Shown here: positions 247-11,184 of the stretch, piece after piece
Layout of the letters: each line of letters starts with the position of its first letter
Position numbering within the stretch: the first letter of the stretch is position 1
Assembly (NCBI GenBank): GCA_030668875.1
Contig: DAOVER010000034.1
Location: 1 to 30,744 of the forward strand
Direction: 5' to 3'
Origin: Candidatus Heimdallarchaeota archaeon
Lineage (GTDB): Archaea > Asgardarchaeota > Heimdallarchaeia > Heimdallarchaeales > Heimdallarchaeaceae
DNA length: 30,744 nt
The notes under the pieces: model-generated
Databases searched by the model: none
What the model was told of the DNA's origin: nothing
Seen by the model: only the letters and a program-made list of their open reading frames with translations
Program-made: the position numbers and the translations under genes

Positions 247-2157
247 TTATTTCTCCTCCTTTACTAAATTATAAATTTTTGCTGATTCAAGAAGATCCAA
301 TTTCCTTAACAAGGATTCCTTTGGTAATCCTGTTTCAAAATCCCATCCCCTCAATTCATAATATTTCGGGAGCATTTTGTCTAACTCTACATATTGGCCT
401 TTTGCAGGTCCTTCAGACAAAGGTTCCTCTGTAAATCTCTTAGGAAGGTTATCTTCATCTTTTCCTATTCCTTCCCTTAAATTAAACAATCTTTCTAAAT
501 TGTATATTCGTTCCCCTATTAGAAGCATTTCATCAGAGGAGATATTTCTTCCAGTTGTGAGAGACAGAAAAATAGCCATATCTTCTGGTCTAACTGCATA
601 CGCGGAAAAACAAGTATACTTGCACATTTCTGCTGAATCAACTATAGCCCCAAAATTTTCATGCCAGACCACCATCCTTGGTTTTCCTTCATGAGAGTAA
701 GGATCTACTGCTTTTTCAGAACCAAACCATTCCAAACCTTTTTCAGGTTCGTAACCCAGCAACTCAAAATTAGGTAAAGCTGCTAGGTGGTCAGCTCCTC
801 TTGTAGCTGTTGCCCATCCTAAACCGAAAGCTTTTGCAGTTCTAACATCATATGCTGGTGGTTCCATTCCTTTTATGTGAAGTGCAAACTCTTCAGATCC
901 AGCATTTATTTTTTCAGAGAATCTCTTTGTTCCTTCAGCAAGATCATTACCAATTCCTTCACGAAAGGCTACTTTTCTGATTAGTTCAATTAAAGCGTCA
1001 TCATTTCCCCATACTAATTCTAATCCATCTGTATCTTTTGATGATAGGATACCTTTTTCATAAGCCTCCATAGCAAATGCTATAGTATCTCCCAGTGAGA
1101 TAGTGTCCAGACCAAATTTATTGGCTAATTCATTCGCTTTTAGAATTGCTCCAAGATCCCCAATTCCGCATTTGGACCCTAAACATACTACTGTTTCATA
1201 TTCAGGACTTCCACCTTTAGTTCCAGCATATTTACCAGTTTTTACCTTGGAATACTTTCCACAATGAATAGGACATGCAAAGCAGCTTTCAGACTTAATT
1301 CTATATAATTCATCAAAAGTTTCTGCGGAAATGTTCTCATATTGGTCAAATATACCTGATTGGTTATTTCTAGTTGCTAGTCCTCCACTTATATAAGCTA
1401 AATCAACCAAAAATGTCGTGCCATAATATGAAAGACTTGGAAATGCAGGATCATCATAAATTTTCTTAAGAGTTTCATCAACAAAATCATGGAATTCTAA
1501 TGGGTTGGCTATCTCTACTCCACCAGTTCCTCTAACAGCAATAGCTTTCATGTTCTTTGAACCCATTACTGCTCCTAATCCAGTTCGGGCTGCAGCTCTG
1601 GATAGATTGTTCATTAGTGCCGCGTATTTAACTAGATTTTCTCCTCCTTGCCCTATGCATAGTACTTGAAAATTTTCAGATAACTCATTTTTTAATATTG
1701 CATCGGTTTCCCAAGTATCTTTTCCCCAAAGATGAGATGCATCTCGTAATTCTATCTTGTCATCTTCAATGTAAAGGAATACTGGTTTTTCTGATTTACC
1801 ATGTAGAAAGATAGCATCATATCCTGCATAAGCAAGTTCTGGAGCAAAGTGTCCTCCAGAATTTGCATAGCCAATCCCCCCAGTCAGAGGAGATTTTGCT
1901 GCAACAGTATATCTAGCTGTTGAAGGAGCAGATGTCCCAGTAAGTGGTCCTAGACTTACGACAAGTATATTTTCTGGACTAAGGGGATCAATACCCTGCT
2001 TTAAATTATCATAAAGATACTTAATCGCCCAACCTCGACCTCCTAAATAATTCTCAATCAACAAGGGATCAGTTTCTTTTACAAGAAAAGATTGTTTTGT
2101 TAAATCTACAACTATGGTTTTTCCTCTATATCCTTTATAGTGTATGGTGGAGTTCAA
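247..2157 (-). CDS. aor: Tungsten-containing aldehyde:ferredoxin oxidoreductase family protein
   Basis: 636 aa with AOR motifs: GPLTG, KSPLTGG..SGG, RTGLGAVMGSKNMKAI, CFACPIHC, GLDTIS, RGADH, YYELRGWD. TTG start with GGTGA SD. Confidence 0.95.
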   Translation of the reverse strand: MNSTIHYKGYRGKTIVVDLTKQSFLVKETDPLLIENYLGGRGWAIKYLYDNLKQGIDPLSPENILVVSLGPLTGTSAPSTARYTVAAKSPLTGGIGYANSGGHFAPELAYAGYDAIFLHGKSEKPVFLYIEDDKIELRDASHLWGKDTWETDAILKNELSENFQVLCIGQGGENLVKYAALMNNLSRAAARTGLGAVMGSKNMKAIAVRGTGGVEIANPLEFHDFVDETLKKIYDDPAFPSLSYYGTTFLVDLAYISGGLATRNNQSGIFDQYENISAETFDELYRIKSESCFACPIHCGKYSKVKTGKYAGTKGGSPEYETVVCLGSKCGIGDLGAILKANELANKFGLDTISLGDTIAFAMEAYEKGILSSKDTDGLELVWGNDDALIELIRKVAFREGIGNDLAEGTKRFSEKINAGSEEFALHIKGMEPPAYDVRTAKAFGLGWATATRGADHLAALPNFELLGYEPEKGLEWFGSEKAVDPYSHEGKPRMVVWHENFGAIVDSAEMCKYTCFSAYAVRPEDMAIFLSLTTGRNISSDEMLLIGERIYNLERLFNLREGIGKDEDNLPKRFTEEPLSEGPAKGQYVELDKMLPKYYELRGWDFETGLPKESLLRKLDLLESAKIYNLVKEEK

Positions 2158-2869: not shown

Positions 2870-3232
2870 TTGTTTACTGAAGAATTTATCATCGAAGAAG
2901 AACTTCATTTAGAAGAAGACGAAATTGAAGATATATACCAGTATCATGGTGCAGAGTATGATGAACTTCCCTTTAAAGAGTTCAAAGATTATGAGGGGGA
3001 GAATCATTCTGATTACCATTTAACTCTCTTCTTTGCACTATTGTTAGCTATTGTAGGTGCTGTTGTACTCGGTTTCTTAACTCCTCGAACTTACGGAGAA
3101 ACATTAATCAATATTTACTGGTGGACTCCTCTCATTGGAGGTTTGATTGGTGCTTTTCTAGGAGGTTTCATTGGTTTAGTGATAGATTCTCTAATTTATG
3201 CCAGATCCAAAGGTAATCAACAAACAGCATAG
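2870..3232 (+). CDS. Small membrane protein: acidic N-terminus plus two TM helices, unknown function
   Basis: 120 aa; very Glu/Asp-rich first 45 aa, then two hydrophobic segments (LFFALLLAIVGAVVLGFL; LIGGLIGAFLGGFIGLVI). TTG start. Confidence 0.7.
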   Translation: MFTEEFIIEEELHLEEDEIEDIYQYHGAEYDELPFKEFKDYEGENHSDYHLTLFFALLLAIVGAVVLGFLTPRTYGETLINIYWWTPLIGGLIGAFLGGFIGLVIDSLIYARSKGNQQTA

Positions 3233-3269
3233 ACATTATTACTATTGATACCTAACAATCAGTAATAAT

Positions 3270-4043
3270 TCATGTTTCTTTTGATGACATAATTAAGAAT
3301 CTATGACTCACATAGTCTATATATTCACTATCAGATATTATTGTATGAAGTTTAAACAGTTTATCTCTGTATTTTCCAACTGTGAATCCAGGCACTTCCC
3401 AAGGAACCGCCAACAGATAAAAAACAATTGCACCCACATCAAAAAATCGAGTTATTGGAAAACACTCTTTCTTCTTGAGAATCTTAAATCCATTATTTTC
3501 TAATTGATTTGCTGCGAAATCTGCAGTCCATTCTGGATAATCACTCACTTTATCATTAAGGAAAAATTCTCTTAAACCATCATCATTATGAGCTCCTACT
3601 TGCTGAGTTAGAAAAATACCTTCTTCTGAGAGTATTCTATGAACCTCAGAGGGAGAATAAGATTCATGTCTATTAATAATCAAATCAAATATGCCATCCT
3701 CAAAGGGCAGGTTTTCATCACCACTAATACCAACAATCTCTACGCCTAAAGATTCTAGTCTTTTTTTTGCAACTGGAACATTGGGGTCATGGGCTTCAGT
3801 GGCACATGTTTTTTCTGGAAAAGGTTGTAACATTGATAGAAGCTCTCCACCGCCTGTTCCCATATCAAGAAGAGAATTAACCTGCCTTAACACCGGTAAT
3901 ATCTCCGTTGTATAACTCCACTTTAATGGTGCTGTAACCATTCTGTCTTTAACATAGGAAAAATCCCATCCAAGAAAAGGTCTTTGAGCTTCTTCAATTA
4001 ATAGTTCAAATGTTTTTTTATGACTTCTAGAATCATTATCCAT
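3270..4043 (-). CDS. Class I SAM-dependent methyltransferase
   Basis: Motif I LLDMGTGGG; LPFEDGIFDLIINRH. Confidence 0.9.
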   Translation of the reverse strand: MDNDSRSHKKTFELLIEEAQRPFLGWDFSYVKDRMVTAPLKWSYTTEILPVLRQVNSLLDMGTGGGELLSMLQPFPEKTCATEAHDPNVPVAKKRLESLGVEIVGISGDENLPFEDGIFDLIINRHESYSPSEVHRILSEEGIFLTQQVGAHNDDGLREFFLNDKVSDYPEWTADFAANQLENNGFKILKKKECFPITRFFDVGAIVFYLLAVPWEVPGFTVGKYRDKLFKLHTIISDSEYIDYVSHRFLIMSSKET

Positions 4044-4149
4044 ATTACAAACTTGAAAGTCTCATTAATTATTTTTGTGGATGGAGAGACTATTTGTATG
4101 CATTCAAAAAGCAGTGACTTTATTGGAAAAAGATTAAGAAATTTTTACT

Positions 4150-4170
4150 AAAAAAATAGAAAGAAAAAAG
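4150..4170 (-). terminator. Oligo-T archaeal terminator after the superoxide reductase gene
   Basis: Minus strand reads CTTTTTTCTTTCTATTTTTTT just after the stop at 4178. Confidence 0.5.
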
Positions 4171-4177
4171 AGCATTT

Positions 4178-4561
4178 TTACTCTACTTTTACTTCTTTTT
4201 CATATTTCCAAAAACCGTGTATGTTACAATAAGATGTTGCAATAAGCTTTCCTGGTTTGTCAGTTTTTAATTGAAAAACTGCATAAGGTTCTGAATAAAC
4301 ACCGCTTGTATCAGGTCCTTTAATTGAAGCTCCATGAGCATCAAAATTGACTAGACCAACTTGATATGGGTATTTTTCGTCTTCTGGCCAGAACATTAGT
4401 TTTATCCAAGAAATATGATGTTCTGTTTTGTTAGGATGAGCAATTTCTTTTCCAACACTAACAGTTACAAGAGTTTTTTCTCCAGCTTTAATAACATCTG
4501 CAATTTCAATAACAGGTACATGTTTTTCTGTTTTCCAATCAGCTGTTCCATATAAATCCAT
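4178..4561 (-). CDS. Superoxide reductase (neelaredoxin / class II SORL, 1Fe-SOR)
   Basis: EKHVP, HPNKTEHHISWI and CNIHG iron-ligand motifs; GGTGA SD upstream. Confidence 0.92.
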   Translation of the reverse strand: MDLYGTADWKTEKHVPVIEIADVIKAGEKTLVTVSVGKEIAHPNKTEHHISWIKLMFWPEDEKYPYQVGLVNFDAHGASIKGPDTSGVYSEPYAVFQLKTDKPGKLIATSYCNIHGFWKYEKEVKVE

Positions 4562-4667
4562 ATGTACTCACCTAAGTCATTGGAACTACATCTATAAATA
4601 AATTTCTTGGAAGAACAAAATTCTACAAAATAGTGTTTAACAACAAAAGAAAGGGGAAAGAAAAATT

Positions 4668-5099
4668 CTAATCATCTTCAAGAACAGTAGGTTCAAGTGG
4701 GTAGGATTCCTTTGGTTGAGATGGTTGACCAGACTGATGAGCTGAAATATCACCTTCTATTTCATTCAATTCTTGCTCTAGTTTATCTATTTCGTCTTCA
4801 ACCTTTTTGATTCTTCTCTCAAACTCTCTTATCTTATATTCTTTTTCAGCAATATGTGCTTCTTTCTTCTTTGCTGCAACTTCACATTTGAAAGATTTAT
4901 CTATCAGTTCTTGCTGTTCAAAATCAATTTTCTTTAATAGCTGTTCTTCTCGTTCTCTATTATCACGAGCTTTCTTCTTCATTTGTTCAGCAATTTTTTT
5001 CTTCAAATCTTGCAAATCGCTTAGTTTTTTGAAAATATCTTCTTCTACATCATGCTTTTTCTCTAGAAGCTTAAAATATTGAACATTCGATTCACTCAT
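4668..5099 (-). CDS. Coiled-coil protein, unknown function
   Basis: 143 aa K/E-rich heptad-like sequence with a Pro/acidic C-terminal tail; own intergenic spacers on both sides. Confidence 0.75.
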   Translation of the reverse strand: MSESNVQYFKLLEKKHDVEEDIFKKLSDLQDLKKKIAEQMKKKARDNREREEQLLKKIDFEQQELIDKSFKCEVAAKKKEAHIAEKEYKIREFERRIKKVEDEIDKLEQELNEIEGDISAHQSGQPSQPKESYPLEPTVLEDD

Positions 5100-5286
5100 A
5101 TTAATCCAAACTATTAGGGGTAGCGCTTGTTTTTAAGGTTATAGAAATGAGGGTAAATGAGAGAAATCTATTAAATTATTAAAAGAAAAAATAGGACAAA
5201 TAAATGAAGATAGAAAAGAAAAATTTAAGAAGAAAAGCAATTGAAAGACAATAGGTGTAAGAGAAGTTCTCATACACCAAAAAAAT

Positions 5287-5410
5287 CGGGCCTTAGCTCA
5301 GTGGCTTAGAGCACCCGGCTGTAGTCAGAAGACACCCTTGTGATCAATGATCAAGGCGTCAGCCGGTGGTAACCGGGCGGTCCCGTGTTCAAATCACGGA
5401 GGCCCGACCA
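5287..5410 (+). tRNA. tRNA-Tyr(GTA) with 47-nt intron at 37/38 (5325-5371); CCA encoded
   Basis: Acceptor CGGGCCT (5287-93)/AGGCCCG (5400-06) with C1:G72; D-arm GCTC/GAGC; anticodon stem CCCGG/CCGGG with GTA at 5321-23; T-arm CCGTG-TTCAAAT-CACGG; 5-nt variable loop; A73 then CCA (5408-10). Confidence 0.96.
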
Positions 5411-5420
5411 TTCTCTTATT

Positions 5421-6179
5421 TTATTTGTTTTTCTTACCTATTGCTGTAAATACTGGTATGAAGATCATTCTTCTATTCTGCTCAATCAGTGTTTTCTCTT
5501 TTTCTACAATTTGTTTGAAATCTGTTTCTGTTATCAAGTTTGCTTCCAACACTCTCTTCCACTCTTCTTCTATGTTATTGATTAAAGATTCTTTATTCCA
5601 TGTTTGAGCAATCACAGAAATCTCAGTTTCTAGCCCTACGGTTTCAAAATAGGAGAGTATTTTTCTTCCAGCCAAAGGATCAGCACCTTCATCTCTTAGA
5701 TATTCAATATGTTTTGTACCAAGGTTCATTTCAGGGTACTCTACCCACCCTCCATAATCAGGTTCAGCTAATGCTACTACAAATCCTTGTTTTTTGCATA
5801 CTCTATAGATTTCGTTCATTGCTCTAATTGGATTTTTTACCCACAACAAAAGATATTGAAAAAGTATTATATCGAATTTGTTATCTTTCAAAGAAAGGTT
5901 TTCAACACTCTCCGCAAGAAATTCTACATTTTCAACTCTCTGCTTTGCTACTTCAATCATTCTTTCGTCTATATCGATAGCTGTTATCGCAGCAGATGTT
6001 CGATCTCTTAGTTCTTTCGTTATTGTGCCCATACCACAACCAATCTCTAAGATATTTTTTGCTTTGGTTAAACCTATCTTTTTGTAGATTTGATTGCGAA
6101 AAAAAAGGGTCCAAGATGCTTGACGTTCAAACTGTTCTTCTATTTCTGGACCCCAATTAACTCTTGATTTTTCATTCAT
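5421..6179 (-). CDS. Class I SAM-dependent methyltransferase, third gene of the radical SAM cluster
   Basis: ILEIGCGMG motif I, AIDID, ENLSLKDNKFDII. Start placed at ATG 6179 (MNEKSR) because the ORF-track extension to 6299 overlaps the radical SAM gene; 22 nt separate it from the rSAM stop. Confidence 0.88.
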   Translation of the reverse strand: MNEKSRVNWGPEIEEQFERQASWTLFFRNQIYKKIGLTKAKNILEIGCGMGTITKELRDRTSAAITAIDIDERMIEVAKQRVENVEFLAESVENLSLKDNKFDIILFQYLLLWVKNPIRAMNEIYRVCKKQGFVVALAEPDYGGWVEYPEMNLGTKHIEYLRDEGADPLAGRKILSYFETVGLETEISVIAQTWNKESLINNIEEEWKRVLEANLITETDFKQIVEKEKTLIEQNRRMIFIPVFTAIGKKNK

Positions 6180-6201: not shown

Positions 6202-7509
6202 TTATGAGAAGGATTCTCTACAGATGGTAGTAGGAGCATCATAATTGAGAGGACATCCTCCTCCACAGATTTCCATTTCAGGACAATTAGTGCATTCATC
6301 GGGTAGATATTTCATATTCCTGAGACTTTTAGCAAGCTTGCTATTCCATATCTTTTTCCATTTTGTGTTCAGGATATTGCCTAGTGGCTCGAAATAGCTT
6401 TGACAAGGGAGAACCATACCATCGGGTTCTATTGCCATTGCAATATGAGCTGCTGTGCATTGTTTTAATCCTAATCCTTTCTCAATTGGATTAAAATCAC
6501 AATATCTTGTAGGGCTGTACCATAGGAAACTCATGTCTTTTTCTTCTGCTTTCTTCATTATCCTGCTAATGACATCATCTAGAGTTTCGACAGAGAGAGT
6601 GAAATCTTCATCTTTTCCGCCTCCAGATTTGATAATACCATTTGCAGCAAAATGGTCTATGCCTAGAGAATCGAGGAAATCTATTGTTTTCTCAATGTCC
6701 TTTATATTGTAAGGAGTTATGGTTGTATTTGTTAGGATATACACTGGAGTTGGAACAATGTTTTTTATTCCTTGGACAGTTTCCTTCCAAGCCCCTTTAA
6801 ATCCACAAAGTTCATCGTGAAGCTTCTCATCATGACTCTCAATTGTAATTTGGAAATGATCTATTCCAGCAGAAACTAGTTTGTCTACAAATTTCTTATC
6901 CTTGAACATCCTACCATTTGAGATTATTCCAGTGATAATACCTAAATCCTCAGCATATGCCACTAGTTCTGGTAAATCCTCCCTTAATGTTGGTTCTCCA
7001 CCAGTAAAAGTAACGTGAGGAACACCAATTTCCCACAAATTGTCTAATACTTGTCTCCATTCATCAGTTGTCAATTCGATAATTTCTCTCTTATGCTCAA
7101 CATAACATTTAGAACATTTGTTGTTGCATCTGTAGGTTAAGGCTAAATCCATGCGTAAGGGAGCTGAGAAAGGAGTTTCTAGTAGAGAACTGATATCTTG
7201 AGATAAGTGTTGCACAGGATCGATATCAGGTTTTGTTAAGAGATCCATAATCGATGTCTTGAAACCCACTAAATCGTCCATCAATTGAGTCTCATCTACA
7301 CGATATTTTCGTTTAACTTTGGAAACAATTTCCTCGTTGGTTTTTCCTTCAATTATCCCAGAAGCAAAATCTGTTGCAGTTCTGTTTAAGTGAAAAATTC
7401 GAGTAGCATTAACTAAGAGCAGACTATTTCCTTTTTTCTCTTTTCTTAAATGCATACGTGCAAAAGTATCAAGATTTCTTATATGGGACATTTTCTTTTC
7501 TCGCATCAT
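6202..7509 (-). CDS. Radical SAM enzyme with N-terminal PqqD/RRE-like domain and C-terminal SPASM domain (PqqE-like peptide maturase)
   Basis: CNNKCSKC (CX3CX2C), TGGEP; SPASM C-X12-G-X4-C...CX2CX5CX3C-X10-C. The N-terminal LLLVNATRIFHLNRTATDF...GKTNEEIVSKVKRKYRVD...DDLVGF has the PqqD/RRE pattern. Start at ATG 7509/7506 overlaps the upstream TGA, with a GGAGGTG SD; ATG 7491 is an alternative. Confidence 0.93.
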   Translation of the reverse strand: MMREKKMSHIRNLDTFARMHLRKEKKGNSLLLVNATRIFHLNRTATDFASGIIEGKTNEEIVSKVKRKYRVDETQLMDDLVGFKTSIMDLLTKPDIDPVQHLSQDISSLLETPFSAPLRMDLALTYRCNNKCSKCYVEHKREIIELTTDEWRQVLDNLWEIGVPHVTFTGGEPTLREDLPELVAYAEDLGIITGIISNGRMFKDKKFVDKLVSAGIDHFQITIESHDEKLHDELCGFKGAWKETVQGIKNIVPTPVYILTNTTITPYNIKDIEKTIDFLDSLGIDHFAANGIIKSGGGKDEDFTLSVETLDDVISRIMKKAEEKDMSFLWYSPTRYCDFNPIEKGLGLKQCTAAHIAMAIEPDGMVLPCQSYFEPLGNILNTKWKKIWNSKLAKSLRNMKYLPDECTNCPEMEICGGGCPLNYDAPTTICRESFS

Positions 7510-9236
7510 CTTCCACCTCCTGCACAAGCACAGGCACAAGCACAGGCACAAGCACATCCTCCTCCCCCACCTCCACCACCAGATCGACCACTACTTCTAG
7601 TAGCTGGTGGGCGTGTAACTTTTTGTAAAGCCTTTGTGAAGGTTTGTGGTTTATTAATAACTCCAGATAAGAGACTGTTTATCGGAGCTACATGCGAAGA
7701 TCCGGCATGTTGAGTAATTCTGAAGAAAGATCTTGAAGGAGTTTCAGAATATGAGCGACCAGTGTAGAAGTAATAATTTCGGACATACCAATGTGGGTAA
7801 TAATAACTACCACCACGTCTATCTAGTCTTTCCTCATATCCCTCATCGACCATAATCCAGAGAAATGCATCTTTTAATTCTGGAGCTGTTTTCTTCATCT
7901 CTTCCCACGATCTATCAATAATCTCCTCGTAATGCTTCTTTGTTCTTCTAACAGAGTATCCTTTCATTTTCTTTGATACACCTTTTATACGAGTGATAAG
8001 AGCTTTCTTTAGATCTGTTTGATGAACAGGTTCATGGGGGATGGTTCCAGAACTAGCACCTTTCTTCCATTTCTCATCTTCTTTATTTCTTTTCTTAATT
8101 CCAGCGATAAGCTGTTGTTGGTATTTTGGTAATTGCCTTTCAACTAGAGATTCTACAGTTACAGTAAATCTTAATGCAGGTTTAGTCTCTTTTATTTCTA
8201 AATATCCAAGTTTCATCATTTCAAAAAGCATCAATGTTGCTACTTGCGTTAGAGGTCTTTGTAAGAGAATCGCTACTTGCGAAGGAGTGAGATCTTTTTT
8301 CACACTACCACCAAGAGTTGTTACTATAGGGGGTAGATATTCCTTGCTCTTCCTTCTTTTTCGAAGTAAATAAAAAATAACAATCACAGCGACCACTGCA
8401 AAGAAGATTATAACATCTAAATTATTGTAAACTGTCAAACTCCAAAAAACACTGTGTACTTTTACATATTCTTCTGGGAGAGCAACAGCAGACATATATC
8501 CGTCATATGGAGAGCCTATGTCATTGAATTCAATATAGAGCCCAGGAGCATTAATACTAGCATCACTTAATTCAGCATCCACATAACTAGAAGTAGTTTC
8601 TCTTACGACTGCTTCATTTATATCAGTCAGCGTATCAGGAAAATGATATCTTACACGTTTTGCGGTATTTCCAGAAGTATAAACACCGGAAACCCCACCA
8701 AACCAAGTTTGCAAAAATACACACGAAGCAAAACCATCCTCACTATCAGGATATACCATCGCAGGATTATGACAGTATACTTCAAAAACTGCAGATTCAC
8801 CGGGATAAATATATCCAACATCTGTAAGCCAGATTTCAGCTGCAATCTCAACATATTCACTTTTCTTAATCCTTGAACTATCTATTTCTGTTCCATTTAA
8901 TTTTGCTGTAATAGAAGATAGTTGGTAATGATTATTTGGAAATCCAACATCAATAACATCTATTGGTTGATAACCACTTAGACAGTTAAATTCCATTTCA
9001 TAGTAGATATCTATGGAACCATCTTCAAGGATGTATATGTCTGTATATATATATGACATTTCAAATCCATAAGCACCCAAGGTAATTGTTCCATCATCAT
9101 CAAGGTCTTTTGCTAAACCAGCTCCAGATACAATAAAAATTGATATGAATATAGAACAGCTCACAATCATTAGTAATTTTGATCTCAATTTTTTAACTCC
9201 CCTATTTTTTCTCAAAGTATATCTATAATATGTCAA
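7506..9236 (-). CDS. DUF2207-like single-pass membrane protein with C-terminal G7-(CA)6-GGGR Cys-rich tail
   Basis: Signal peptide, about 230-aa exported domain, one TM helix (VIIFFAVVAVIVIFYLL) followed by RKRRKSK, then DUF2207-like LTPSQVAILL...LMLFEMMKLGYLEIKE and a Tyr/Ser/Gly-rich end. TTG 9188 with an upstream GGAG is a plausible alternative start. Confidence 0.85.
   Translation of the reverse strand: MTYYRYTLRKNRGVKKLRSKLLMIVSCSIFISIFIVSGAGLAKDLDDDGTITLGAYGFEMSYIYTDIYILEDGSIDIYYEMEFNCLSGYQPIDVIDVGFPNNHYQLSSITAKLNGTEIDSSRIKKSEYVEIAAEIWLTDVGYIYPGESAVFEVYCHNPAMVYPDSEDGFASCVFLQTWFGGVSGVYTSGNTAKRVRYHFPDTLTDINEAVVRETTSSYVDAELSDASINAPGLYIEFNDIGSPYDGYMSAVALPEEYVKVHSVFWSLTVYNNLDVIIFFAVVAVIVIFYLLRKRRKSKEYLPPIVTTLGGSVKKDLTPSQVAILLQRPLTQVATLMLFEMMKLGYLEIKETKPALRFTVTVESLVERQLPKYQQQLIAGIKKRNKEDEKWKKGASSGTIPHEPVHQTDLKKALITRIKGVSKKMKGYSVRRTKKHYEEIIDRSWEEMKKTAPELKDAFLWIMVDEGYEERLDRRGGSYYYPHWYVRNYYFYTGRSYSETPSRSFFRITQHAGSSHVAPINSLLSGVINKPQTFTKALQKVTRPPATRSSGRSGGGGGGGGCACACACACACAGGGR
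7521..7556 (-). repeat. Coding tandem repeat, 3 x 12 bp (TGTGCTTGTGCC/A) encoding (Cys-Ala)6
   Basis: Read directly: six TGT Cys codons alternate with GCT/GCC/GCT/GCC/GCT/GCA. Confidence 0.95.
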
Positions 9237-9432: not shown

Positions 9433-10350
9433 TTATTTATTCTTTATAGTCCTTTCACCTTTTACTAGTTTCTTTTTACCTTTCTTCGTTGCAGGTGATT
9501 TCTTGATTCTATAAATGATTCTTTGGATATCTTTCTGTACTTCAATTTCTATCTTAATTCCGCTACTTTTAGTTCTCTCCTTCCATTGATAACTGATTAA
9601 ATCAATGTACTCCTTTTCAGTCATTTTCTTAACAGTTGTTAATGATTCTAATGCTTCAAGTTCTCTAAATCCATCAAAAATAACCTCATAAGAGCCACTT
9701 TTTTTCATAATGACACCTTTCCACCCTTCCACATTTGCCCCCATAACAGCTATATAGGAGATATATTTGAAGGGTCCCTCAAGAAAACCAAATAAATTAT
9801 CAACTTCTTCAAGAAACTCTGTTTTGTCATTAAACAAGGTTTTGGCTTTTTGCTTCCCACTATCCTCTTTTACTTTCATATACATTTTATTTATGAGATC
9901 AACTTTTCTTATAGCTAACATAAATCCCCTCCATTTTTCATCCAGCCTTGGAATCTCCGTTCTTTCTCTTCGAGTTTCCTCATATATTGGCACAGTCATG
10001 GAATTAATGCTGAATATCACTAGTTTTTGAAATTCATTTTTTGGATGTTTGAGAGTCCAAGTAATGTCCATAGTTTCAATTGGAGAGATTCGTGTCGAAC
10101 TATGAATACGAATCCTACCGTCTTCGAGTTTTTTGATGAAACGTGGATATACCCTGAACTTTGCCATTGTATTTTGGAAATTTGCTATAATCATACTAAG
10201 GAAAGCTTGAATCACACCTTCCAAACCATCTCCCTCAAGCAAAGTTTCAATTTCCCATTGCCTTTTTTCATTTACCACAGATTCAAGTGATAACAAAAAT
10301 TGGTTGATTAACTCAAGTTCATTTTCTGAAATATTAACTGTTTGAACCAT
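9433..10350 (-). CDS. Hypothetical soluble protein with basic C-terminal tail
   Basis: 305-aa ORF, no recognisable motif; ends KKSPATKKGKKKLVKGERTIKNK. Confidence 0.8.
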   Translation of the reverse strand: MVQTVNISENELELINQFLLSLESVVNEKRQWEIETLLEGDGLEGVIQAFLSMIIANFQNTMAKFRVYPRFIKKLEDGRIRIHSSTRISPIETMDITWTLKHPKNEFQKLVIFSINSMTVPIYEETRRERTEIPRLDEKWRGFMLAIRKVDLINKMYMKVKEDSGKQKAKTLFNDKTEFLEEVDNLFGFLEGPFKYISYIAVMGANVEGWKGVIMKKSGSYEVIFDGFRELEALESLTTVKKMTEKEYIDLISYQWKERTKSSGIKIEIEVQKDIQRIIYRIKKSPATKKGKKKLVKGERTIKNK

Positions 10351-10458: not shown

Positions 10459-11184
10459 TTAGAAGAATAAGTGTTCTTCATCTTTAGCCTTTTTCTTTTT
10501 CTTTCTTACTCTTCGCTTTTTCTTATTAGTTTTCTCCAATTCCTCTCTTGTAATTGATAATATTGGTTCCTTGATGCCTAAGTCCTCATCAAGTATTTCT
10601 GCTATCTTTTTCATTGTCTGATAAAATAGTTGTTTCATTTTACTTTTTGTTTCTCTCTTATATACACGTTTTAGTGTTTCCAAAGACTCTGAGTCAGCGT
10701 AATTAATTATAATGTTCAGTGACATTTGAATAGGGAAAACAGCTTTATCATTTTGAATTATTTCAAGAAGTAATTCTCTTATTTTATCTTTTTTTAATTT
10801 TCCTCGTTCATGTAATTTACGAATTGCCATTGAACGAATAACATCATTTTCATCCTCTTTGGATATTCTGATTAGAAAATCTTCGATTTTTGGAGAAGAC
10901 ATATCACCGATCACTTCAGCTAACACAAGTTTAATGCTATTTTCTCTTTCGTACGCATAAAACTCCATTAGCTTTTGTGCAATTTCTTTCTTCTTAGTAT
11001 CCTTTAGAATAAAAATAGCTTTAATTCTAATCCTCTCATATTTTTCCTTCTCAAAAACTTTGATAAGGAATTCCAGGATATTTTCATCAATTTCTTGTTC
11101 CGATATCGAAACAAGCTCTTCCAACTTCATCTTATCAGTAAGGTTATTGAATTTTTTCAGTTTCTTCTCCAATTTTGGATTCAT
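10459..11184 (-). CDS. HEAT/armadillo-type helical repeat protein
   Basis: Recurrent E...IR..AI..L pattern (ERIRIKAIFIL, ENSIKLVLAEVI, DVIRSMAIRKL); Lys/Arg-rich C-terminal tail. Confidence 0.8.
   Translation of the reverse strand: MNPKLEKKLKKFNNLTDKMKLEELVSISEQEIDENILEFLIKVFEKEKYERIRIKAIFILKDTKKKEIAQKLMEFYAYERENSIKLVLAEVIGDMSSPKIEDFLIRISKEDENDVIRSMAIRKLHERGKLKKDKIRELLLEIIQNDKAVFPIQMSLNIIINYADSESLETLKRVYKRETKSKMKQLFYQTMKKIAEILDEDLGIKEPILSITREELEKTNKKKRRVRKKKKKAKDEEHLFF

Follow-up and report, generated by a model that had tools for sequence, protein, structure and literature searches.

Radical S-adenosylmethionine (SAM) maturases of the SPASM type are known mainly from small secreted peptides, and whole-protein cases are few (QhpD and, in 2026, CrpC). 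In anaerobes, the ACGX system pairs a short Cys-containing repeat with a radical SAM-SPASM enzyme of the TIGR04340 family. The QhpC subunit, small and periplasmic, carries Cys-Asp/Glu links. In quinohemoprotein amine dehydrogenase, the crosslinks within QhpC are made by QhpD (PMC7876137). In Methanococcus voltae, CrpC installs thioethers on the whole archaeal protein CrpA, including its C-A-G-x motifs (PMC13692751), and, in Streptomyces sparsogenes, StsB connects Cys2, Cys4 and Cys6, which form a CxCxC core, with Gly11, Gly13 and Gly15 (PMC10288494). Here, we describe a Cys-Ala tail at the C-terminus of a DUF2207-like membrane protein, together with the radical SAM-SPASM enzyme encoded next to it, in a 30,744-nucleotide stretch of DNA from Candidatus Heimdallarchaeota archaeon (assembly GCA_030668875.1, contig DAOVER010000034.1, positions 1 to 30,744; hereafter, the window). 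This tail probably receives a modification that has not been described before, made on the whole protein.

Compared with these systems, the locus shows both common and distinct features. In the ACGX system, unlike here, the repeat is Ala-Cys-Gly-X and belongs to a small peptide. As in the StsA/StsB/StsC system, the Cys residues are spaced at i, i+2 and i+4 and flanked by Gly; StsB is a radical SAM-SPASM enzyme with an RRE that makes three S-to-alpha-carbon links onto Gly, yielding a hairpin ladder (PMC10288494). However, the substrate in that system, StsA, is a free peptide of small size and the RRE protein is separate, whereas the core in the window ends a 560-residue membrane protein, the residue that alternates with Cys is an invariant Ala, and the family has 5 to 10 Cys per tail. 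The CrpA/CrpC system (TIGR04463) shares with the window an archaeal RRE-radical SAM-SPASM enzyme encoded beside a whole Cys-rich protein, which is the substrate of CrpC (PMC13692751), but CrpA is soluble, with a 17-residue repeat and C-x-x-Q/D motifs. QhpC/QhpD is a precedent for radical SAM-dependent crosslinks within a protein rather than a released peptide (PMC7876137), although QhpC and the tail protein are not similar in sequence and the links of QhpC serve cofactor biogenesis. We found no paper on the tail or the tail/enzyme pair in the literature, and no Pfam or NCBIfam model describes them; the whole tail protein matched no Pfam or NCBIfam family at E<=0.01, and its last 74 residues matched none either. 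New here are the family-wide grammar of the tail with counts, selection at the peptide level, a dual-coding Shine-Dalgarno site, the lack of length variants among contigs, a (CA)5/(CA)6 difference between lineages, a phyletic test in Asgard genomes with Gly-tailed proteins as controls, an unlinked arrangement of the two genes in one Asgard family (f12), and a sister system with a CHSA repeat.

Conservation of the Cys-Ala tail

Residues are numbered throughout on the 576-residue longest open reading frame (ORF; 7506..9236, minus strand). At its C-terminus, SSGRS is followed by a run of eight Gly, by (CA)6 and by GGGR, directly before the stop codon. The original prediction, made from the sequence alone, had this tail exactly right except for the Gly run, for which it claimed seven residues. 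The 12-bp repeat with wobble variation that it described is, according to Tandem Repeats Finder, a perfect unit (period 12, 2.9 copies, 100% matches, 7522-7556); the unit on the coding strand is TGT GCT TGT GCC, and variation is confined to the Ala wobble base. The gene is present in a single copy in its genome. Translation likely starts at TTG 9188 rather than TTG 9236, because AGGGGAG precedes this codon by 8 bases and homologs begin at the equivalent MRSKLL; the resulting protein, with MRSKLL at its N-terminus, is 560 residues long.

A search with a family profile built from seven sequences detected 881 clusters (50% identity representatives) at E<=1e-3, including 234 at E<=1e-30, in bacteria and archaea, with Heimdallarchaeota, Hodarchaeales, Promethearchaeota, Bathyarchaeota and Chloroflexi among the named sources. 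The tail is recognisable in 144 of the approximately 155 family sequences that were read, the remainder being truncated proteins, and because the representatives are less than 50% identical to each other, the pattern is not a chance occurrence. One protein from a public metagenome-assembled genome, P0004, ends in CLLYTSDA, which resembles a translated Nextera adapter.

No other part of the protein is as conserved as the tail. An alignment of 95 sequences has a mean column identity of 23%, and over the full length of the protein just seven columns do not vary: C567, C569, A570, C571, A572, G574 and G575. Across the 144 tails, each of the last three Cys is followed by Ala in 430 of 431 cases, the earlier Cys pairs accept Val (44), His, Asp and Thr as well, and the terminal GGGR is found in 124. 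Most commonly, there are 7 Cys (75 tails), followed by 6 (24), 10 (16), 5 (14), 8 (11) and 9 (2). Three types of tails can be distinguished. The commonest type is CACACACA-G-CACACA-GGGR, or a 3+4 arrangement (7 Cys); a Heimdall-type subgroup has an unbroken (CA)5-GGGR; and the Bathyarchaeota-type tail contains 10 Cys in three blocks split by V-S or A-S and ends in GGG-V-G. Free scrambling of the Cys pattern among homologs had been put forward in the original prediction as the outcome that would undo it, and the alignment of the tails shows that the pattern is kept. The codons for the Cys, Ala, Gly and Arg residues of the tail differ synonymously among seven loci, indicating that selection acts on the peptide.

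The number of Cys had also been proposed to be tuned by slippage in the repeat. The contigs of three marine-sediment samples (X1, X2 and X4) from which the window may stem, among them those of a co-occurring strain with about 92% identity, show the tract without an indel; X4 contains a second allele over 7472-7651, with 15 substitutions and no gap. Two variants within the tract, 7527 A>G and 7545 G>A, both fall on Ala wobble bases and are synonymous. In X5, the contigs of the relatives break at 7557-7579, so that this sample is uninformative. Slippage tuning is not supported by these assembled contigs, which hide rare, low-frequency variants. The number of Cys differs between lineages, with (CA)5 in the closest relatives, P0001 and P0002 (89-90% identity), and (CA)6 in L026, from another genus of the same family.

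A radical SAM-SPASM enzyme encoded next to the tail

The product of the gene that follows the tail gene contains Radical_SAM (PF04055, 95.8 bits), SPASM (PF13186, 44.7 bits) and PqqD (PF05402) domains, the last at residues 29-79 with 26.3 bits, a small margin over the cut-off of 23.4. In an alignment of 68 enzyme orthologs (mean column identity 57%), C128, C132 and C135 of the CxxxCxxC motif are invariant, as are C337, C351, C369, C409, C415 and C419 of the SPASM domain, with C406 and C430 nearly so. Thus, the enzyme combines the sequence hallmarks of RRE-dependent radical SAM-SPASM maturases, namely, the CxxxCxxC motif, the seven-Cys SPASM motif, a PqqD-like RRE and an adjoining Cys-bearing candidate substrate. 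Compared to the NCBIfam radical SAM equivalogs, the enzyme reaches none of the cut-offs and remains far below all of them: NirJ2 142.3 (cut-off 500), PqqE 141.8 (381), SkfB 114 (300), StsB 88.9 (625) and the ACGX-system enzyme TIGR04340 72.5 (400); AhbD, WgkB, AlbA and SCIFF-type families are among the others whose cut-offs it falls short of. The CrpC family, TIGR04463, is not among the best 25 of the 76 matching NCBIfam families, so that any match to it would be below 66 bits. Among solved structures, SkfB, a thioether synthase (98 bits), PqqE (6c8v; 77 bits) and SuiB (61 bits) are the nearest. A complex prediction for the enzyme, residues 490-576 of the tail protein, SAM and three clusters scored 0.10 against a mark of 0.32 and is evidence neither way.

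The start codon of the enzyme gene overlaps the stop codon of the tail gene as ATGA, and the Gly codons GGA GGT GGA of the tail form a Shine-Dalgarno-like GGAGGTGGA at the right distance from this start. The two genes also overlap or are separated by 0-2 nt in L001, L003, L004, L006 and L007. Part of the conservation of GGGR could, then, reflect the Shine-Dalgarno role for the next gene. However, in L005, where the genes are 43 nt apart and the enzyme has its own GGAGG, the tail still ends in GGGR, so that the end appears to be constrained as a peptide and not solely as a ribosome-binding site. The pairing of the radical SAM gene with that of a methyltransferase, seen in the window, recurs in L006, L034, L027 and L028.

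Co-occurrence of the tail and the enzyme

The enzyme gene directly adjoins the tail gene in the window and in L001/L002, L003, L004, L005 (Chloroflexi), L006 (Promethearchaeota), L007 (Bathyarchaeota), L025, L026 and L034, and is one gene away in L032. To put the association on a phyletic footing, 121 Asgard genomes were searched. The Cys-Ala-tailed protein was identified in 22 of these genomes, and the enzyme ortholog, at 405 bits or more, in all 22. The genes are adjacent in 14 of the 22, namely, in all 12 of the 22 that belong to families f1 and f23, plus G040 and G112. Within families, presence and absence go together: in f23, both genes are found in 2 of 4 genomes and, in f9, both in 1 of 15. 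Nine more genomes, from family f12 and 72-89% complete, have the enzyme with no tail gene detected.

The original prediction had it that DUF2207-type proteins usually end in plain low-complexity tails, and Gly-rich tails are indeed what we find in canonical DUF2207 ORFs of other Asgard genomes. Unlike the tail protein, the canonical members that were read end in plain Gly/Ala/Ser tails and come from genomes without the enzyme: among seven genomes with DUF2207 ORFs above the Pfam cut-off and such tails, none encodes it. Asgard family f6 presents a sister family, with DUF2207-like proteins of 660-720 residues whose match to the profile lies in its cytoplasmic part (E 1e-19 to 1e-37). The sister tail, read in two genomes, consists of a four-residue Cys/His repeat, CHSA, with CV[ST]HDA variants, and ends in S-G-G-[F/Y]-R. 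A related PqqD-radical SAM-SPASM gene (344-368 bits) lies on the same contig, 1-8 kb away and often divergent, in 11 of 12 f6 genomes by coordinates. Given that the genomes with Gly tails lack the enzyme and that the Cys/His-tailed sister has one of its own, it is the cysteines of the tail that the enzyme clade appears to follow, rather than the protein's body.

A search was also made for short forms of the tail that stand on their own. The tail is carried by 118 of 120 listed short proteins, and the two that were looked up are contig-end fragments. P0292 and P0368, in which a RuvA-like or response-regulator N-terminus is joined to the tail, are probably chimeric contigs formed at the conserved tail DNA. 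The short forms that were followed up being contig-end fragments or chimeras, they provide no evidence for a separate precursor peptide. This result bears on the possibility that the C-terminus is a scaffold for a released cofactor or metabolite, as in PqqA/PqqE or MftA/MftC, with the membrane protein as its carrier. The location of the conserved block at the extreme C-terminus would suit such a role, as would PqqE being among the closest named relatives of the enzyme (141.8 bits; 77 bits to 6c8v). However, there is no protease or other tailoring gene conserved in the loci that were read, a two-domain membrane protein of 560 residues is an unlikely disposable carrier, and the short forms that were looked up are contig-end fragments; we regard the scaffold as very unlikely.

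Topology and fold of the tail protein

The protein appears to span the membrane once after an N-terminal signal anchor or signal peptide, in which the segment at 21-39 has 7 K/R ahead of it, in the n-region, and 4 D/E behind. The sole internal transmembrane (TM) helix has a mean Kyte-Doolittle hydropathy of 3.03 and is directly followed by RKRRKSK. In the AlphaFold2 model, built with 95 family sequences (mean pLDDT, for predicted local distance difference test, 84), a beta-sandwich (58-254) is followed by a helix (273-297) and by a winged-helix and helical-bundle region that extends to residue 541; from residue 555 on, the C-terminal end is disordered (pLDDT <50). The cytoplasmic part modelled alone has a predicted TM-score (pTM) of 0.81. 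From the positive-inside rule, applied to RKRRKSK after the TM helix, and from the domain layout of the model, we infer that residues 292-576, including the tail, are cytoplasmic. The original prediction had placed the tail on this side on the first of these grounds, and topology prediction does not put the C-terminus outside.

The layout of the protein, with a signal anchor, a beta-sandwich ectodomain, a TM helix, a cytoplasmic winged-helix and helical domain and a low-complexity, Gly-rich end, is that of DUF2207/YciQ-like proteins (PF09972 and PF20990). In Pfam searches, the window protein has no PF09972 hit and reaches 13.4 bits with PF20990 (cut-off 33); relatives reach 24.1 (P0008) and 17.9 bits with PF09972 (cut-off 24.4) and 17.2 bits with PF20990. 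In the ESM Atlas, the protein as a whole matches DUF2207/DUF2207_C clusters with a TM-score of 0.35, and its cytoplasmic domain does so with 0.55-0.56. In view of these sub-threshold profile hits and the similarity of the fold, 'DUF2207-like' is a fair description of the fold, which stops short of formal family membership. The ectodomain model resembles ribophorin I/Ost1 as well as the N-domains of M1 aminopeptidases (Foldseek E 1e-8 to 1e-6); the match to ribophorin I/Ost1, of the eukaryotic oligosaccharyltransferase, has E 1.6e-8 with a low TM-score and is weak, if curious in an Asgard archaeon. A likeness of the cytoplasmic domain to GOLPH3/Vps74, which provided the only PDB matches above Z 3 (Z 5.8 and 5.0), is likewise curious but too weak to use.

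With a cytoplasmic C-terminus, the Cys could conceivably be lipidation sites, or the Cys/Ala block might dip into the membrane and re-anchor this end of the protein. In the longer variants, the block is hydrophobic on the Kyte-Doolittle scale, but in most members it is too short for a helical span and is then followed by GGGR. Moreover, no acyltransferase is conserved nearby, and the linkage with the enzyme would be left unexplained, so that either function of the block seems highly improbable.

The tail as a candidate substrate

The most economical reading of the tail is that it is the in-cis substrate of the enzyme encoded next to it. Judging by the sequence evidence, we lean, without great confidence, towards modification of the Cys-Ala tail by the neighbouring RRE-radical SAM-SPASM enzyme. 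The Gly/Ser linker would hold out the disordered (Cys-Ala)n-GGG-Arg end in the cytoplasm, and the enzyme would be made by translational coupling, from the same mRNA as the tail protein. Most likely, it would join Cys sulfurs to carbons of nearby Ala or Gly, in sactionine- or ranthionine-type thioethers, to which the methyltransferase, where present, would add a further step. Both the contact between the enzyme and the tail and the kind of chemistry are what we infer here. The specific assignment of thioethers, by analogy with the systems described above, is tentative, with a real but minority case in its favour. Beyond linkage, the strongest single argument is that Ala and Gly vary no more at their positions than Cys does, which favours an enzyme substrate with acceptor carbons and is not something that a plain thiolate metal site demands.

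On a broader scale, and slightly more doubtfully, the (Cys-Ala)n end might become a thioether ladder with Ala or Gly acceptors, in an ancient modification of a cytoplasmic protein that Asgard archaea, Bathyarchaeota, Chloroflexota and many other anaerobes would have in common, with the CHSA sister family as a second substrate class. Were sulfur joined to the beta-carbon of Ala, lanthionine-type bridges would arise by a radical route that needs no dehydration. If the tail is modified in any manner, this would be a widespread, so far unseen modification of a cytoplasmic protein end in anaerobes, on an unusually simple core of Cys, Ala and Gly, and would give the first functional handle on DUF2207-like proteins.

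Several observations weigh against the tail being such a substrate. In the 8 genomes of Asgard family f12 that have both genes, these show no linkage and lie on separate contigs or at a distance of 40 kb. The enzyme keeps its methyltransferase neighbour there, with the Cys-Ala-tailed protein encoded elsewhere (L027 3246-5358, L028 3946-6038; L029, L031), which implies that the system can work in trans. The best NCBIfam scores of the enzyme, all far below the cut-offs, are to NirJ2 and PqqE, not to a thioether synthase. Among the residues of the core, the possible acceptors are limited to Ala, Gly and Cys, and there is precedent for Gly but little for Ala. The design of leader, linker and core that the original prediction envisaged fares unevenly. 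A conserved amphipathic segment, with the family consensus F-A-x-x-V ... F-T-x-x-V-T-x-x-T-N-P-x-P (F-T-K-A-L-Q-K-V-T-R-P-P in the window), does precede the core, followed by a Gly/Ser linker, the Cys-Ala core and GGG-R; in tails with the T-[N/R/H]-P motif, the linker that separates this motif from the first Cys is 16 residues long at the median (interquartile range 14-19), and Gly accounts for 36% and Ser for 26% of it (62% combined). However, this motif is present within the last 60 residues of 71 of the 144 tails and missing in the other half of the family, and the leader-like stretch is modelled as two folded helices, 517-526 and 530-541 (pLDDT ~92), packed in the domain; for both reasons, it may not be a free leader. 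Finally, metals are classically bound by Cys-X-Cys arrays, to which the sister tail adds His.

Thiolate clusters typically show the Cys-X-Cys spacing. As the main alternative, the tail could be an unmodified arm that binds metal or an Fe-S cluster (Fe-S, Cu, Zn or Ni) through thiolates placed at i,i+2 on the same side of an extended chain, perhaps paired between the tails of a dimer, with the enzyme linked to it for another reason, for example, by using or loading the cluster. The Cys-X-Cys spacing, the alternation of Cys with His, another metal ligand, in the sister family, the nearby genes for a desulfoferrodoxin (in the window) and for the iron transporter VIT1 (in L006), and the f12 tail genes without an adjoining enzyme gene all point in this direction. 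However, the residue between the Cys, which in a metallothionein-like protein would be variable, is an invariant Ala, and neither this Ala (430 of 431) nor the fixed GGG-R end is explained by metal binding alone. The enzyme contains an RRE, a peptide-binding domain, and is kept in 22 of the 22 tail-bearing Asgard genomes, and the metal genes nearby are not retained from one locus to another. With these points in mind, a purely metal-binding arm strikes us as unlikely, if deserving of weight.

The enzyme might also modify the tail through chemistry other than thioether formation, such as epimerisation of every other residue, oxidation of Cys to formylglycine, C-C or C-methyl chemistry, or formation of thio-oxazoles, and the methyltransferase would then complete the product. 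The chemistry of SPASM enzymes is diverse, NirJ2, PqqE and AhbD are the NCBIfam models with the highest scores here, with SbtM also scoring, and the methyltransferase stays paired with the enzyme even when the tail gene is elsewhere. Nevertheless, Cys-rich cores located beside RRE-SPASM enzymes gave thioethers in the cases that were read, and the core lacks the anSME-type C-x-P/A-x-R motif, containing only CAGGGR. We consider such other chemistries to be distinctly unlikely.

Feature coordinates and neighbouring genes

The features of the tail gene and the loci discussed here are listed in Table 1.

Table 1 Coordinates of the tail gene, its parts and neighbouring genes in the window and of selected genes in other loci
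Feature	Coordinates	Strand	Basis and remarks
Tail-bearing DUF2207-like single-pass membrane protein gene	7506..9188	minus	longest ORF, to TTG 9236, 576 aa
Predicted N-terminal signal anchor or signal peptide, residues 21-39	9120..9176	minus	hydropathy 2.46; AlphaFold2 helix 5-39
Predicted extracytoplasmic beta-sandwich domain, residues 58-254	8475..9065	minus	AlphaFold2, pLDDT mostly >90
Predicted TM helix, residues 273-291, with RKRRKSK, residues 292-298	8343..8420	minus	hydropathy and AlphaFold2
Predicted cytoplasmic winged-helix and helical-bundle domain, residues 300-541	7614..8339	minus	AlphaFold2; includes leader-like amphipathic helices 517-541 (7614-7688)
Flexible Pro/Ser/Gly linker, residues 542-560, last eight Gly	7557..7613	minus	sequence; AlphaFold2 pLDDT <50 from residue 555
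(Cys-Ala)6 core, residues 561-572	7521..7556	minus	sequence; 12-bp unit x2.9
GGGR (7509-7520) and stop TGA (7506-7508)	7506..7520	minus	sequence; codons GGA GGT GGA, 7512-7520, double as Shine-Dalgarno site
RRE(PqqD)-radical SAM-SPASM enzyme, 435 aa	6202..7509	minus	Pfam domains; ATG 7507-7509
Class I SAM methyltransferase, Methyltransf_11 type	5421..6179	minus	Pfam; 22 nt downstream of radical SAM stop
Desulfoferrodoxin/neelaredoxin-type gene	4178-4561	minus	PF01880, 109.6 bits
305-aa protein	9433-10350	minus	no Pfam family
HEAT-repeat protein	10459-11184	minus
HEAT-repeat protein, L003	3490-4125	minus
305-aa protein counterpart, L004	53-1000		70% identity
2-TM zinc-ribbon protein, L001 (JGI metagenome)	5663-6007		upstream of tail gene
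2-TM zinc-ribbon protein, L005 (Chloroflexi)	2977-3333		upstream of tail gene
2-TM zinc-ribbon protein, L007 (Bathyarchaeota)	3071-3406		upstream of tail gene
170-aa zinc-ribbon protein, L026 (Heimdall-family genome)	731-1243		equivalent place
f6 sister tail gene, L023 (G055:C16)	3924-6092	minus	sequence read
f6 sister tail gene, L024 (G075:C1)	58-2034	plus	sequence read

In several loci, the start of the tail gene is overlapped by the gene for a small protein of 111-118 residues with two TM segments and a C-terminal zinc ribbon, which ends in EEP[K/T]W and is 29-40% identical between phyla. A search for this protein in the genome of the window yielded no convincing match (best E 0.098). Directly upstream of the tail gene in the window is the gene for the 305-residue protein, which is kept in the same place in L004, where the tail protein is only about 50% identical. 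A HEAT-repeat protein is encoded near the cassette in two Heimdall-type loci, the window and L003, on opposite sides. On the other flank of the cassette in the window, a coiled-coil ORF separates the methyltransferase gene from the desulfoferrodoxin-type gene, about 0.9 kb further downstream; the presence of the latter would fit an anaerobe exposed to oxygen stress.

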